In this document: piece by piece, positions 4,715-20,696 of the stretch | How positions within the stretch are numbered: the first letter of the stretch is position 1 | Layout of the letters: each line of letters opens with the position of its first letter | From: Candidatus Saccharimonadota bacterium | GTDB taxonomy: Bacteria > Patescibacteriota > Gracilibacteria > UBA4473 | Direction of reading: 5' to 3' | Assembly (NCBI GenBank): GCA_965228485.1 | Contig: OZ245819.1 | Location: 1,200,001-1,232,000, forward strand | Length of the DNA stretch: 32,000 bases | The notes under the pieces: generated by a model | The model's database searches: none | The model's input: only the letters and a program-made list of their open reading frames with translations | What the model was told of the DNA's origin: nothing | Made by a program: the position numbers and the translations under genes

Positions 4715-4789
4715 GCGCGCATCGTATAGTGGCTATTATATTGCCTTGCCAAGGCAGAGACGCGAGTTCGATTCTCGCTGCGCGCTCCA
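4715..4789 (+). tRNA. tRNA-Gly (anticodon GCC), CCA encoded
   Basis: Hand-folded cloverleaf. Acceptor GCGCGCA/TGCGCGC. D-arm contains GG. Anticodon stem TTGCC/GGCAG with loop TTGCCAA. T-arm GCGAG-TTCGATT-CTCGC. Discriminator U, then CCA. Confidence 0.9.
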
Positions 4790-4793
4790 CGAA

Positions 4794-4830
4794 AAATTTC
4801 TTGAGTCTGATAAGACTTGAGAAATTTTTT
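4794..4830 (+). terminator. Rho-independent terminator after tRNA-Gly
   Basis: 14-bp stem AAATTTCTTGAGTC / GACTTGAGAAATTT (two G-U pairs) with loop TGATAA, followed by a T-run. Confidence 0.6.
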
Positions 4831-4845
4831 GTATAGCCCGAAAGG

Positions 4846-4939
4846 GCTGAGGATCGAACGATAAGAGTTCGACGGTAAGCCCAAATTTTTAATTTGAACG
4901 CTTCGTTCTAAACTTTGTTTAGATAAGAAGATTCTCGTT
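4846..4939 (+). repeat. tRNA-trailing module, copy A: three hairpins, then ATAAGAAGAT, then a partial copy of the tRNA-Gly T-arm
   Basis: Collinear identity blocks shared with 18405..18514: GATCGAAC, GTTCG, AAGCCCAAAT, ATTTG, GCTTCGTT, ATAAGAAGAT. Hairpins at 4854..4872, 4882..4896 and 4907..4923. GATTCTCGTT at 4930..4939 matches the tRNA-Gly sequence GATTCTCGCT (4770..4779) at 9/10 positions. Confidence 0.6.
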
Positions 4940-16884: not shown

Positions 16885-17053
16885 GGTTGTATGAGGGTTA
16901 ATTTTCTTAAAATTAGGGGTCAAAAAAGCTCACTAATTTGAGAGCTAATTTTCAAATTAGATGATTTTAAGAGGGCTGATATGCTAGGTTTTTATTTTCG
17001 GTTTTCAAGTCAGAACTGGTTGAATTTTCTACTTTTCTATGTTTCTTTGTAAA

Positions 17054-17069
17054 ACAGCATATCTTGTAT
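17054..17069. promoter_or_regulatory. NrdR-box-like site 1, upstream of nrdB (downstream of the -10)
   Basis: ACAGCATATCTTGTAT matches 12/16 of the consensus and is embedded in the 8-bp inverted repeat TCTTTGTA...TACAAAGA. Confidence 0.5.
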
Positions 17070-17084
17070 ACAAAGAGAATTATT

Positions 17085-17100
17085 ACACACTATATAGTGT
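17085..17100. promoter_or_regulatory. NrdR-box-like site 2, upstream of nrdB (in the promoter spacer)
   Basis: ACACACTATATAGTGT matches 15/16 of acaCwAtATaTwGtgt. It is 31 bp from site 1. On the minus strand it exactly fills the 17-nt spacer between TTGAAT (17107..17102) and AATAAT (17084..17079). Confidence 0.65.
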
Positions 17101-17206
17101 CATTCAAATCTTTTTTTAATTATTTTTTAAGGTTTAATTAAGGTAGTTTAAAAGAGGAAATTCTCATTTTTTGTGTAATTTTTTTATTCAAGAAATGTCT
17201 TTTTGA

Positions 17207-17222
17207 ACACAATATTTAGTAC
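17207..17222. promoter_or_regulatory. Third, single NrdR-box-like site, facing the phosphatase gene
   Basis: ACACAATATTTAGTAC matches 13/16. It overlaps a plus-strand TTGAAC(17203..17208)-16-TATCTT(17225..17230) promoter-like pair upstream of the 17274 ORF. Confidence 0.4.
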
Positions 17223-17273
17223 TGTATCTTGTGGTGCTTTATTTTTTTAAATTAATCAGTCATTATTTGGGGG

Positions 17274-17732
17274 ATGATAAAAATTTTGATGGTATGTTTG
17301 GGAAATATTTGCCGAAGTCCTGCAGCGGAAGGGATTATGAGGCAAAAGTTGCTAGAAAATGGATATCAAGAAGAAGTTGATTTTGTGTTAGATTCCGCTG
17401 GAACTGGGAGTTGGCATATAGGACACCCCCCGGACCCACGATCACAAGAAGTATGTGAACGTTATGGAATTGATATTACGGCATTAAGAGCTCGTCTTTT
17501 GGAGGTGGAGGATGGGAAAAACTACGACTATATTTTTGGGATGGATTACTCTAATGTTGATAATATTAAAAATACAATAGGAGTTGATTATCATGATAAA
17601 GTATTCATGTTTGATGTGCATGAAGTGAATGATCCGTATTATTCAGCTTCTGATGGTTTTGAGATTATGTACCAACACTTGGAAAAAGCCTCTGAAGTTT
17701 GGATTGAAAAGATGTTTAATAAAAACACCTAA
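17274..17732 (+). CDS. Low-molecular-weight protein-tyrosine phosphatase
   Basis: 152 aa with an N-terminal P-loop MVCLGNICRSPAAEG (CX5R-S) and a distal DP(Y) acid motif (VNDPYY). Confidence 0.88.
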   Translation: MIKILMVCLGNICRSPAAEGIMRQKLLENGYQEEVDFVLDSAGTGSWHIGHPPDPRSQEVCERYGIDITALRARLLEVEDGKNYDYIFGMDYSNVDNIKNTIGVDYHDKVFMFDVHEVNDPYYSASDGFEIMYQHLEKASEVWIEKMFNKNT

Positions 17733-17777
17733 AACTTTGGTTTTAGGCGTTTTGTTTTTAGAATATTTAATTTTCTA

Positions 17778-18116
17778 TTATGTGGTCATCCATTCGGCGA
17801 TGACTTTTACAATCCACCAGGCGAAGAAGGCAACAAACAGCCCTCCGACGGCGTACATTACGATCATTTTCCCTTTTTCTTTATCATTGGTTGTTCCTCC
17901 GATCATATACCAAAAACCTCCGTACATAATCATTAGTACGGCGATACTACCAGCGACACTTAGTAGCATGCTCGTCCAGTTTGAAACAAGTCCTCCCACG
18001 GAGTTTAGTGAGGCATTTCCACTGTGAACCTCTGCGGTTACAATATGAATACCTTGGGCAAAAGTTGTTTTTGCTGAAAGCATTAAACCCGTAAGCGCTA
18101 GTAATTTTTGTTTCAT
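17778..18116 (-). CDS. TrbC/VirB2-like (T4SS-pilin family) small membrane protein
   Basis: I prefer the ATG at 18116 (MKQKLLALTGLMLSAKTTFAQG signal peptide). The mature part has two TM helices flanking YGGFWYMIGGTTNDKEKGK, the pattern seen in T4SS-pilin-like proteins common in CPR genomes. Confidence 0.6.
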   Translation of the reverse strand: MKQKLLALTGLMLSAKTTFAQGIHIVTAEVHSGNASLNSVGGLVSNWTSMLLSVAGSIAVLMIMYGGFWYMIGGTTNDKEKGKMIVMYAVGGLFVAFFAWWIVKVIAEWMTT

Positions 18117-18171
18117 ATTTCTTCGTATTATACGTGAAAAACCACTTTTTTTCAAATTTTATGATGTTGCT

Positions 18172-18199
18172 TTGAAAAAAGATTATGAAAGCTTAAAGT
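18172..18199 (+). promoter_or_regulatory. Promoter-like repeat P1 (TTGAAA-16-TAAAGT)
   Basis: Part of the 31-mer at 18171..18201 that is 28/31 identical to 18285..18315. It is followed by a short hairpin-plus-U-tract region (18218..18248) rather than a gene. Confidence 0.35.
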
Positions 18200-18285
18200 T
18201 TCAAGTTAGATTCCCTGAAAAAGGCGGAGAGCATAGCGCGCCTTTTTTAGGAAGAGGAGAAAAAATGGTAAGCTGAAATGAAATT

Positions 18286-18313
18286 TTGAAAAAAATTTTT
18301 GAAAGCTTAAAGT
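18286..18313 (+). promoter_or_regulatory. Promoter P2 for tRNA-Arg (TTGAAA-16-TAAAGT)
   Basis: The -10 ends 11 nt before the mature 5' end of the tRNA. Confidence 0.55.
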
Positions 18314-18324
18314 TTTTTCGACGT

Positions 18325-18398
18325 GACCTCATAGTTTAATGGAAAAACGTCCCCCTCCTAAGGGGAAGCTGCAGGTTCGATCCCTGCTGGGGTCACCA
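18325..18398 (+). tRNA. tRNA-Arg (anticodon CCU), CCA encoded
   Basis: Hand-folded. Acceptor GACCTCA/TGGGGTC. D-arm GTTT-AATGGAA-AAAC. Anticodon stem TCCCC/GGGGA with loop CTCCTAA. T-arm GCAGG-TTCGATC-CCTGC. Discriminator A, then CCA. Confidence 0.88.
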
Positions 18399-18404
18399 TA
18401 AAAA

Positions 18405-18514
18405 GCTCAGATCGAACCTATAAGGTTCGTCTGAAAGCCCAAATCTTGATTTGGAGCTGGAAGCTTCGTTTTTCCTGTTAAGGGAAATAAGAAGATCCCT
18501 GCTGGGGTCACCAT
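18405..18514 (+). repeat. tRNA-trailing module, copy B: three hairpins, then ATAAGAAGAT, then a perfect 21-bp copy of the tRNA-Arg 3' end
   Basis: Hairpins at 18408..18433, 18439..18454 and 18471..18487. GATCCCTGCTGGGGTCACCAT at 18494..18514 is identical to 18379..18399. Collinear with module A at 4846..4939. Confidence 0.7.
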
Positions 18515-18996
18515 TAGCGTTCGATGGCGATGAGGCCGCTTCGAACCCATTTGATAACTTCGATATTATTTTTAAGAATTGTTTCTAGAAATTTTTCTAG
18601 CACTTGGCTCGTATCCATTAATTCCAAACAGAGGATGTGTCCATCACGGTGCAGTTCTTTTACTAAAATATCTCCTTCGGCCTGTTTCAGAAAAGTTTCA
18701 TCATTATCGTCCATCACTTTAAATTTAGCGAGGACTACCTCTCGGGCAATAGTGGTTTCTGGTTGAAGAATCTTTACTTCAATCACTTCTATAAGTTTGC
18801 TGATAGCTTGTGCGACTTTATTTGCTTCAGATTCATCTCCAATGATAGTAATAGTGAAGTGTGATCGTTTCGGATTGGAGGTTCGTCCTACGGTGAGAGA
18901 ATCTATGTTGAATAATTTTCGTCTGAGTAATCCTGCAATTCGGGAAAGAACTCCAGGAGCATTTTGTGTTGTAACCGAAAGGATTTGTTTCTTCAT
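18514..18996 (-). CDS. ilvN: Acetolactate synthase small (regulatory, ACT-domain) subunit
   Basis: 160 aa. The ACT signature LSVTTQNAPGVLSRIAGLLRRKLFNIDSLTVG is typical of IlvH/IlvN. Located directly downstream of ilvB. Confidence 0.85.
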   Translation of the reverse strand: MKKQILSVTTQNAPGVLSRIAGLLRRKLFNIDSLTVGRTSNPKRSHFTITIIGDESEANKVAQAISKLIEVIEVKILQPETTIAREVVLAKFKVMDDNDETFLKQAEGDILVKELHRDGHILCLELMDTSQVLEKFLETILKNNIEVIKWVRSGLIAIER

Positions 18997-18998
18997 TT

Positions 18999-20696
18999 CT
19001 AGAGTGAATCAATTTTTTCATTTTTGTTGAGCATCGTATTTCCAAGACTTTCTCCTGCCGGAACCATTGGGAATACATTTTCCTCTTTTTCTACTTTAAA
19101 TTCTGCCAAAATAGGACCTTTTGCGGTCTTCATTTTTTCCAGTAAGGCCAAAGATTCCTCAGGGTTTGTGGCTCGATGACTTTCTATACCATAAGCTTCT
19201 CCTAGTTTTACAAAGTCAGGATTGTGAAGTGGTGTGTCGACATAATTTTTTTCATAAAAAAGTTCTTGCCACTGTCGAACCATTCCTAAGAAAGAGTTGT
19301 TGAGAATAATAATTTTTACAGGGATATTATCTTGGGCAATTGTAGCGAGTTCTTGACTGTTCATCTGGAATCCTCCATCTCCAGAAATTGACCAAGTTGG
19401 ATGTCCAGAAAAAGCTGCTCCCATACTTGTCGGAAGAGAGAATCCCATAGTCCCAAGTCCACCAGAGGCGAGGAATTTTCGAGATTTTTTTGGAAAGAAT
19501 CTTTGAGCAGACCACATCTCATGTTGTCCAACATCTACTAGAACAACATCATCCTCACCAAGAAGGCTGTAAAGTTGGTTTATAACGGTAATTTCGGTGA
19601 GACGATTCTTTTTTTCTCCATCGAGTTTCCAGGCTTCTTTTTTACTTTTGATGACCTCTTGCCAATCTTTGATGTCCGTTGCTGTAACGGTACTGGTTAC
19701 TTTTGGAAGCGTGTCTCTAATTTGTCCGCAGACTTTAGCATCTACAATAATATTTTTGTCGAATTCAGAAGGATCAATATCGAAATGGATGAATTTTTTA
19801 TTGGCTTGAAAATCTGAAAGTTTACCCGTGATACGATCATCAAAACGAATTCCGATTCCAATAACAAGGTCAGCATTGTTCACTGCAAAGTTTGCTCCAC
19901 CGGTTCCATGCATTCCAAGCATCCCCAAGGCCAAGTCTATTGTCCCATCTGCTCCTCCAATACCATGGAGTGTCCAGACATTTGGGATGCCCGTTTTTTC
20001 TAAGAACTCATTTAGTTGTTTCTCGGCTTCTGATAAAATTACTCCATGTCCGTAGATTACTACTGGACGTTTAGCGGCTTGAATAAGATCAATAGCTTTT
20101 TGGATTTCATCGTCACAAGTATTTGTCTCATGAAAGTATCCTGGTAGGTGCATTTCAAATTTTTCATTGTTTTCAATTTTTTTTGCTAGTGTTTCTGGAA
20201 CAGGATTACTCTGAATGCATTTGGGGATATCAATCAATACTGGTCCAGGGCGTCCAGATTTTGCCAAATAAAAGGCTTCATGAATGACTCGAGGAAGGTC
20301 TTCAATATCTTCTATGAAGTAAGAGTGTTTAACAATTGGTTCACAAATTCCAACGATATCGGTTTCTTGAAAAGCATCACTTCCGATAAGGTGTTTAAAA
20401 ACATTTCCAGTAATAGCGACCATTGGTACTGAATCGAGCTTTGCATCAGCTATTCCTGTGACTAGATTGGTGGCTCCAGGTCCAGAGGTTGCGAGGCAAA
20501 CACCGACTTCAGTAGTGGCTCTTGAATATCCTTGTGCGGCGAATGCTGCTCCTTGTTCATTTCGTACCAATATCCGCTTGATATTGTAATGAGGCATTCG
20601 GTCGTATATAGGGAGAACCGCACCTCCTGGGTAGGCAAAGATTTCACTCACTCCAAGGTTTTCCAACGTTTTCAGTAATGCGTCAGCTCCGATCAT
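18999..20696 (-). CDS. ilvB: Acetolactate synthase large (catalytic, ThDP) subunit
   Basis: 565 aa. GADALLKTLENLGVSEIFAYPGGAVLPIYD, TSGPGATNLVTGIADA and the ThDP motif GDGGFQMNSQELAT...NN. Confidence 0.9.
   Translation of the reverse strand: MIGADALLKTLENLGVSEIFAYPGGAVLPIYDRMPHYNIKRILVRNEQGAAFAAQGYSRATTEVGVCLATSGPGATNLVTGIADAKLDSVPMVAITGNVFKHLIGSDAFQETDIVGICEPIVKHSYFIEDIEDLPRVIHEAFYLAKSGRPGPVLIDIPKCIQSNPVPETLAKKIENNEKFEMHLPGYFHETNTCDDEIQKAIDLIQAAKRPVVIYGHGVILSEAEKQLNEFLEKTGIPNVWTLHGIGGADGTIDLALGMLGMHGTGGANFAVNNADLVIGIGIRFDDRITGKLSDFQANKKFIHFDIDPSEFDKNIIVDAKVCGQIRDTLPKVTSTVTATDIKDWQEVIKSKKEAWKLDGEKKNRLTEITVINQLYSLLGEDDVVLVDVGQHEMWSAQRFFPKKSRKFLASGGLGTMGFSLPTSMGAAFSGHPTWSISGDGGFQMNSQELATIAQDNIPVKIIILNNSFLGMVRQWQELFYEKNYVDTPLHNPDFVKLGEAYGIESHRATNPEESLALLEKMKTAKGPILAEFKVEKEENVFPMVPAGESLGNTMLNKNEKIDSL

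Follow-up and report, generated by a model that had tools for sequence, protein, structure and literature searches.

The window analysed here is a whole stretch of 32,000 nucleotides, bases 1,200,001-1,232,000 of a single-contig genome (G000; 1,295,315 bp, 38.5% G+C, 99.7% complete). Within it, an intact tRNA-Arg(CCU) gene is followed by a 94-bp insert that lies between two copies of the tRNA 3' end and then by ilvN on the opposite strand. We searched with nhmmer and with R1, a covariance model made from seven full copies of the conserved module in this insert. Another tRNA in the window bears such a unit too. The features are as follows.

18325..18398, + strand: tRNA-Arg(CCU), intact, CCA encoded (ARAGORN; Rfam RF00005, 65.7 bits)
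18379..18399, + strand: proximal 21-bp repeat, attL-like, from T-loop G57 to CCA plus 1 nt (exact match)
18400..18493, + strand: 94-bp insert, a 9-nt linker and then the conserved module (model R1, 88.6 bits, E = 1e-15)
18408-18494, + strand: module, covariance-model match inside the insert (model R1)
about 18409-18433, + strand: hairpin H1, its 3' arm resembling the T-arm GGTTCG (covariation, fold z-scores)
about 18436-18458, + strand: hairpin H2, AGCCCAAAT..ATTTGGAGCT, with GGAAGCTTCG coming next (covariation, fold z-scores)
about 18470-18487, + strand: hairpin H3 (covariation, fold z-scores)
18494..18514, + strand: distal 21-bp repeat, attR-like, against the ilvN stop codon (exact match)
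18514..18996, - strand: ilvN, acetolactate synthase small subunit, convergent with the tRNA, chromosomal flank (TIGR00119, 94.1 bits)
4715..4789, + strand: tRNA-Gly(GCC), the second unit-bearing tRNA in the window (ARAGORN)
4790..4939, + strand: tRNA-Gly(GCC) unit, made up of a terminator, a GAAA-loop hairpin, the module (4849-4930) and a decayed tail, ATTCTCGTT (R1, 76.7 bits)

An earlier, sequence-only reading had reported a perfect duplication of the tRNA 3' end at this locus. We found exactly two copies of GATCCCTGCTGGGGTCACCAT in the window (18379-18399 and 18494-18514), which form a direct repeat from the tRNA T-loop to the 3' end that is identical at 21/21 positions, a feature of att scars. 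The window holds no further match at up to 3 mismatches, and 0 were expected from 100 shuffles, which rules out a chance origin. The other structural observations of that reading were also borne out. Identity ends sharply on both sides, with C versus A before the repeat and A versus T after it. Before the distal copy stands AATAAGAA and no GCAGG partner, so that this copy cannot form a T-arm. The ilvN frame occupies 18514-18996 on the minus strand, so its stop codon and the distal repeat overlap at base 18514, which is common to both. No ORF of at least 60 aa is present in the insert. Its fold comprises three hairpins (RNA, -31 kcal/mol, z = -4.1; DNA, z = -5.3). There is no recombinase in the window; the PF00589, PF00239 and PF07508 matches of the genome all lie elsewhere.

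Upstream of tRNA-Arg(CCU), at window positions 18171-18270, a promoter-like TTGAAA-16-TAAAGT is present twice, and its first copy is followed by GTTAGATTCCCTG, which is T-loop/T-stem-like, and then by a terminator hairpin. This duplicated promoter-like unit may be a relic of an earlier tRNA arrangement. In two congeners, G003 (L037) and the complete genome G004 (L035:1500-2200), tRNA-Arg(CCU) adjoins ilvN too, but lies downstream of it in the same orientation. Since the two genes are convergent here and co-oriented there, an inversion must have occurred in one lineage.

With model R1, we obtained 10 matches at 8 tRNA loci in this genome. Thus, of the 35 tRNA genes found by ARAGORN, all with CCA encoded, 8 carry the module of about 88 nt. 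By nhmmer and R1 these are the genes for Met, Leu-CAA, Arg-CCU, Arg-GCG, Ser-UGA, Gly-GCC and Pro and, with the module in a distal position, Arg-UCG. The tRNA-Arg(GCG) gene (983,659-983,732; L003:1341-1414) has the same layout, with a homologous insert of about 86 bp and a copy of its own tail that has one mismatch. At tRNA-Met, about 1 kb with two small ORFs lies between two modules. We also observed a second module type, which has only hairpin H1 in common with the first and likewise ends in a tail copy. It starts with GAACC..GGTTCGAyAyGA, has a purine-rich end before the tail copy and occurs at tRNA-Ser(UGA), Trp, Pro and Met (genome positions 306045-306465, 748086-748290, 176844-177000 and 736462-736580). 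A genome-wide scan for the H1 motif was too noisy to be of use. Two side observations concern the tRNA genes themselves. TAGATAAGAAG, upstream of tRNA-Gly, adjoins the terminator of the upstream gene. Among the 35 ARAGORN genes, the CGN arginine tRNAs have the anticodons GCG and UCG and none has ACG, an uncommon set among bacteria that points to inosine-34 not being used.

A typical unit begins with the tRNA tail, which runs from T-loop position 58/59 to CCA. In most units a canonical terminator and a short hairpin come next; then follow H1, H2, GAAGGCTTCG, H3, the motif (A/C)AAGAAG and a second tail copy. H1 has the form GAACC...GGTTCGA, and its 3' arm mimics a T-arm. H2 has the form AGCCCAAAT...ATTTGGnGCT, and H3 is a variable hairpin with a conserved CUUCG/AAGAAG base. 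GGTTCGA in H1's 3' arm and ATCC with the tail after AAGAAG make up the two halves of a T-loop, and the module core sits exactly between them. The Arg(CCU) and Arg(GCG) units have neither terminator nor short hairpin, and at tRNA-Arg(CCU) nothing separates the module from the tRNA; the conserved terminus of that insert is ATAAGAA(G). The C-GNA-G or GNRA type is found in the short hairpins that lie between the terminator and the module, such as those at window 4826-4841 and L139:1250-1265, and in many tips of H3, with sequences such as GCCCGAAAGGGC, GCGAAGC and GCGTAGC. Mini-hairpins of these types are unusually stable as DNA.

We then analysed the fold in 41 matches (37 distinct) from this genome, its relatives and metagenome contigs. 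The covariation alignment was itself fitted to the model, but the slid controls and the double changes remain clear: among the 37 distinct copies, 92.3% of cells pair versus 27-45% (about 42%) with slid partners, and compensatory double changes occur in 14 of the 23 pairs. None of 500 shuffles matched the observed covariation values. Between genera, the H2 pair CCCAAAT/ATTTGG changes to CCAAAAT/ATTTTG or CCGAAAT/ATTTCG. The sequence of H2 is conserved and not its structure alone, and in H3 structure is conserved more than sequence. The wobbles are also one-sided, with 38 G:U pairs on the tRNA-sense strand versus 5 A/C pairs, which would be wobbles of the other strand. These data demonstrate that the fold of the module is selected on the tRNA-sense strand. 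In an Rfam search of window positions 17000-20000 with E up to 1, the tRNA was the sole match, and the module had no family.

The module is closely tied to tRNA tails. A tRNA on the same strand lies 7-200 nt before it in 28 of the 37 distinct copies; 4 are further from a tRNA, and 5 are on fragments that have no upstream tRNA. In total, 17 isoacceptors are involved. Units end in a copy of the resident tRNA's own tail, with exceptions such as a Gly unit of G004 and the third unit behind tRNA-Ser(UGA), whose tail comes from a different serine tRNA, of the GCU/GGA type. The motif (A/C)AAGAAG precedes the tail in nearly all 37 copies, the variants in G044 and G048 reading GAAGGGG. In every copy the repeat starts at T-loop position 58/59, and in many position 58 is T, not A. 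The right end varies: it lies at CCA+1 for Arg-CCU, at +6 to +13 at some loci and after the whole terminator at others, the repeats at tRNA-Val of G002 and G003 being perfect and 65-76 nt long. Behind many modules the match of the terminal tail stops 12-13 nt in, and the module is kept where many tail copies decay. Matching tails are followed by unrelated terminators at tRNA-Asp of G003 and tRNA-Val of L132. This is consistent with two distinct molecules having recombined within the tail and does not fit fill-in target duplication or a cDNA copy.

Among 43 genomes of the family, R1 found the module in 12, from 6 of 25 genera, and these genomes carry it at different tRNAs. In G004 the modules are at Arg-UCU, Gly-UCC and Ala-GGC (twice), loci that differ from those of G000. 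The tRNA-Arg(CCU) gene itself is free of both module and tail copy in 12 relatives, G003 and G004 included, so the empty sites expected of a mobile unit do exist. Sequence comparisons give further evidence of movement. Between tRNA-Gly(GCC) of G000 and tRNA-Gly(UCC) of G004, the segment that starts at CCA, includes terminator, hairpin and module and ends with the 9-nt tail ATTCTCGTT shows about 95% identity, although the bodies of the tRNAs differ, their flanks do not align and IlvN is only 55% identical between the two genomes. The tail behind the G004 module matches Gly(GCC) and not the resident Gly(UCC). At tRNA-Ala of the same genome, two perfectly identical 152-bp units stand in tandem, and L139 and L145 form an occupied/empty pair with a 1-kb insert at tRNA-Trp. 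A search of viral_contigs for the module gave 0 matches, and no close strain with the same junction of tail and ilvN was found in metagenome_contigs. In genome_contigs there were 44 pattern matches, of which 14 pass the model, all in Gracilibacteria, Peribacteria or Altimarinota MAGs. A wider taxonomic spread was rejected, the pattern matches outside the family being due to chance. Thus, the module family is limited to one family of Gracilibacteria/Peribacteria-type CPR bacteria.

The sequence-only reading had pointed to tyrosine integrases as the usual source of such repeats. This part did not hold. The genome encodes one PF00589 protein, whose best match is XerC/XerD (about 225 bits) and whose gene adjoins no tRNA. 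As this Xer-like protein is the sole tyrosine recombinase, we rejected a tyrosine integrase as the agent; the recombinases at tRNA ends here are large serine recombinases. There are two, of 577 and 599 aa and 28% mutual identity, both convergent to tRNAs with overlapping 3' ends. The first heads a 16-kb island at tRNA-Arg(UCG) (L014:483-16610; genome 25982-42110), and its stop codon lies inside the tRNA T-stem. The cargo comprises a 1244-aa HNH/PIN-TPR-GreABC protein, an AcrB/HlyD efflux pair (RND), an ArsP permease and a small Terminase_2-like HTH protein. At the far junction there is a tail copy that has lost 7 nt, and beyond it a preexisting module unit. The second is part of an 8-kb defence island that extends from tRNA-Asn to a convergent tRNA-Thr (L043:254-8831; genome 930553-939130), and its frame runs antisense through most of tRNA-Asn. 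This island encodes an HTH protein, a HATPase_c_3 ATPase, an OLD-like AAA_15+TOPRIM nuclease and a methyltransferase, and no tail copy marking its far end was found within 44 kb. Full-length islands are therefore present, at tRNAs other than Arg(CCU); a further full example, with Rep-like, Abi and Type ISP genes, lies at tRNA-Ser(UGA) of G048.

Of the 43 family genomes, 34 encode large serine recombinases (as many as 13 in one genome), versus 2 of 14 control genomes. We discarded their presence as a discriminator, since at 34/43 they are too common to be informative. Among 14 loci examined, 7 have a serine recombinase gene abutting a tRNA in this way. A separate observation concerns G004, where a serine-recombinase island lies behind tRNA-Ala(UGC) and tRNA-Lys(UUU) and has an inverted tRNA-Thr(UGU) at its end (L178:579-14678; G004 812078-826177); no tail copy marking the far end of the tRNA-Lys island was found within 39 kb. 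The counterpart cluster in G000 is Ala-Thr-Lys-Lys on a single strand. This arrangement suggests a recombinase-associated inversion.

Four longer insertions inform on the order of events. In each of them (Arg-UCG of G000, Ser of G048, Trp of L139 and Ser of G002), a relic partial tail and a terminator lie between the cargo and the module. The target tRNA therefore already bore a unit when the longer element arrived. The far junction keeps only the last 6-10 nt of the tail, which suggests that the crossover took place close to these final nucleotides of the tRNA, whereas module units duplicate at least 20 nt from the T-loop. The 12-13 nt limit of the match in many terminal tails behind modules falls at roughly this position. 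Thus, two recombination systems are possible, and the module units may come from a different, possibly older, system than the resident islands. We found no recombinase-bearing island that ends directly in a module.

On balance, and with moderate confidence, we take the tRNA-Arg(CCU) unit to be a cargo-less, att-flanked miniature integrative unit, similar to a cis-mobilizable element. We infer that it was inserted through site-specific recombination with a serine recombinase as the agent. Insertion into the 3' part of the tRNA gene would leave the 21-bp pair as attL/attR-type sites. The incoming unit would bring a replacement tail, from T-loop position 58/59 to CCA, that now completes the tRNA and, behind it, the three-hairpin module of about 88 nt ending in ATAAGAAG. 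Most simply, the distal 21-bp copy would be the ancestral tail of the tRNA, displaced 115 bp downstream to the ilvN stop codon. An unoccupied locus would be expected to read GCAGGTTC-GATCCCTGCTGGGGTCACCAT and then directly TAGCGTTCG (GCAGGTTCGATCCCTGCTGGGGTCACCAT to TAGCG), and a circle or tandem junction would read ...GGGAAATAAGAA-GATCCC...CACCAT-AAAAAGCTCAG. Such units stand behind many tRNAs, can be repeated in tandem and can terminate cargo-bearing cassettes, and larger islands insert later between unit and tRNA. Since the unit has no enzyme gene, it must be moved in trans or in cis (accretion), most likely by the large serine recombinases that this lineage has at tRNA 3' ends. The empty sites and the islands elsewhere support the earlier suggestion of a nonautonomous mini-element with an attL/attR-type duplication of a tRNA end. 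In contrast, a collapsed island remnant, which had been offered as another possibility, is unlikely as a one-off event given a conserved, covarying module at many tRNAs. Several points count against a miniature integrative unit: we found no module directly at the end of a recombinase-bearing island, the longer insertions and the module units differ in how much tail they retain, a double-stranded circle of 115 bp is very small for a serine recombinase substrate, a fold on one strand is not predicted for a double-stranded recombinase site, and the tail of the Gly unit in G004 is not that of the resident tRNA.

A rival reading is that the module is mainly a functional noncoding RNA in the direction of the tRNA, either a trailer, as the earlier reading had also proposed, or a small RNA. 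The unit would then be an RNA-gene cassette or an element retained by the host, and the tail copy would be a by-product or a functional tRNA-like 3' end. We regard this as possible but doubtful. The strong covariation, with 14 of 23 pairs doubly changed, and the 38-to-5 wobble bias toward the tRNA-sense strand are what an RNA would show. At Arg(CCU) and Arg(GCG) no terminator separates tRNA and module, the module is conserved despite the decay of many tail copies, and the unit survives distally after newer elements have inserted beside the tRNA. However, the module matches nothing in Rfam, and in most copies a canonical tRNA terminator precedes it and no promoter is evident. It has a patchy phyletic distribution, at tRNAs that vary by species. 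Because many tails are shortened or decayed, a tRNA-like 3' end must be dispensable.

A more speculative reading, to which we give a low probability, is that the module represents a new class of structured element, RNA or top-strand single-stranded DNA, that itself specifies insertion at the T-loop. The tRNA tail would then act as an integron-like platform without an integron integrase, which would capture small cassettes and serve as a landing pad for defence islands.

It is improbable, to a slightly greater degree, that the module is a structure-specific single-stranded DNA site, either an attC-like recombination site in a cassette platform at tRNA tails or a single-strand origin of elements whose replication or transfer proceeds through ssDNA. 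Such a site would account for the conservation of structure over sequence in H3, the strand-specific signal and the DNA fold z-score of -5.3, and it would explain the very small size of the unit more easily. Cassettes that have no recombinase end in a module, C-GNA-G mini-hairpins (GCGAAGC, GCGTAGC) abound among the accessory hairpins, and one island has a weak Rep_trans match. However, that match, at 22.3 bits, is under the Pfam cut-off of 29.6. Moreover, H2 is conserved in sequence too, no attC core motifs were seen, and an integron-type integrase is absent, the sole tyrosine recombinase being Xer-like.

We give very little credence to spread of the modules as REP/REPIN-like hairpin repeats by the single RAYT of the genome. 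The repeats are hairpin-rich, strand-specific and intergenic, and there is one RAYT gene (NF047646, 81.6 bits versus a cut-off of 80; L181:1294-1788; genome 327774-328265). However, this gene lies in a tight row of genes with no flanking module or REP-like hairpins. The complete genome G004 lacks RAYT but has four modules, the perfect tandem pair among them, and RAYT is missing as well from module-bearing G002, G003, G015, G018 and G046. In addition, HUH transposition does not produce target duplications of 20 nt or more. RAYT mobilisation was therefore rejected on the unflanked gene and the phyletic mismatch. Some relatives have up to 6 RAYT homologs.

Reverse transcription of the tRNA or its precursor, halting at modified A58, is an equally improbable source of the tail copy. 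A stop of reverse transcription at A58 sets the 18-nt primer-binding site of retroviruses, the repeats here start at 58/59, position 58 is often T, and some repeats end at CCA or the terminator, that is, at the end of the transcript. We rejected this origin because no reverse transcriptase (PF00078) was found in the 99.7%-complete genome and because the unlike terminators at tRNA-Asp of G003 and tRNA-Val of L132 are unexpected for a cDNA copy. Finally, an assembly artefact is unlikely, and a chance match or artefact has virtually no probability as an explanation of the 21-bp repeat: in its favour is the small size of the duplication and nothing more, and against an artefact stand the homologous arrangement at a second tRNA-Arg of the same single-contig genome and the identical layout in dozens of independent assemblies (MAGs and metagenome contigs).

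CPR bacteria have tiny genomes and few recognised types of mobile element. Our results show that tRNA 3' ends are busy integration sites in one CPR family. What is new is a covarying module of about 88 nt that stands outside Rfam and has spread over at least 17 isoacceptors, in units that include replacement tails. Should it be a signal for recombination or replication, the module would define a mobile unit of minimal size, about 115-170 bp, and a means of stacking cassettes and defence islands that does without tyrosine integrases. If it acts as RNA, it would be a new RNA family linked to tRNA genes. Annotation pipelines will overlook the module, and the partial tRNA tails adjoining it are open to misreading.

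Several known systems resemble the units described here. Integron cassettes are small and promoter-less and end in a strand-specific attC site whose structure is conserved over its sequence; empty cassettes exist. The units share the small promoter-less cassette with a strand-specific terminal site, and both systems have empty forms. Unlike integrons, this system has no IntI and no R/L box architecture, its site is bound to tRNA tails, and H2 is conserved in sequence. The CIMEs of Streptococcus thermophilus (ICESt1/ICESt3) are kilobases long and are found at the fda 3' end; they require a tyrosine integrase and lack a conserved structured core. Like them, the unit at tRNA-Arg(CCU) has att-type (attL/attR) repeats around a segment with no recombination or transfer genes, and module units are found in tandem with autonomous islands, as CIMEs are with autonomous elements at the same site (accretion). 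However, the unit is much shorter, is located at tRNAs and has a conserved structured core.

In Prochlorococcus, tycheposons mostly use tyrosine recombinases, with 27 of 937 elements using large serine recombinases (Hackl et al., bioRxiv 10.1101/2020.12.28.424599). Tycheposons are alike in their tRNA hot spots, in stacked elements with partial tRNA copies between them, in defence and niche cargo and in degenerate remnants; they differ in host phylum and in the mostly tyrosine recombinases. A search of the preprint for a repeat element gave no conserved noncoding att-site module.

The ssrA-specific islands of Dehalococcoides carry DsiB, a large serine recombinase (McMurdie et al. 2011, PMC3146451, where the CIME concept is also cited). 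These islands have a repeat of about 20 bp that starts midway through the T-loop and a conserved motif just upstream of the distal repeat; the tRNA-Arg(CCU) unit shows both of these DsiB/Ccr-like features. The recombinase gene overlaps the attL side, as it does here at tRNA-Arg(UCG) and tRNA-Asn, although it is absent from the 94-bp insert. Tandem arrays with recombinase-less members are likewise common to both. The units differ in being gene-less and only about 0.1-0.17 kb long, in using at least 17 tRNAs versus one tmRNA gene and in having a covarying three-hairpin filling that is not described for the ssrA islands (PMC3146451); here, we infer the link to a serine recombinase. Of published systems, the serine-recombinase ssrA island family with its integrase-less members is the closest.
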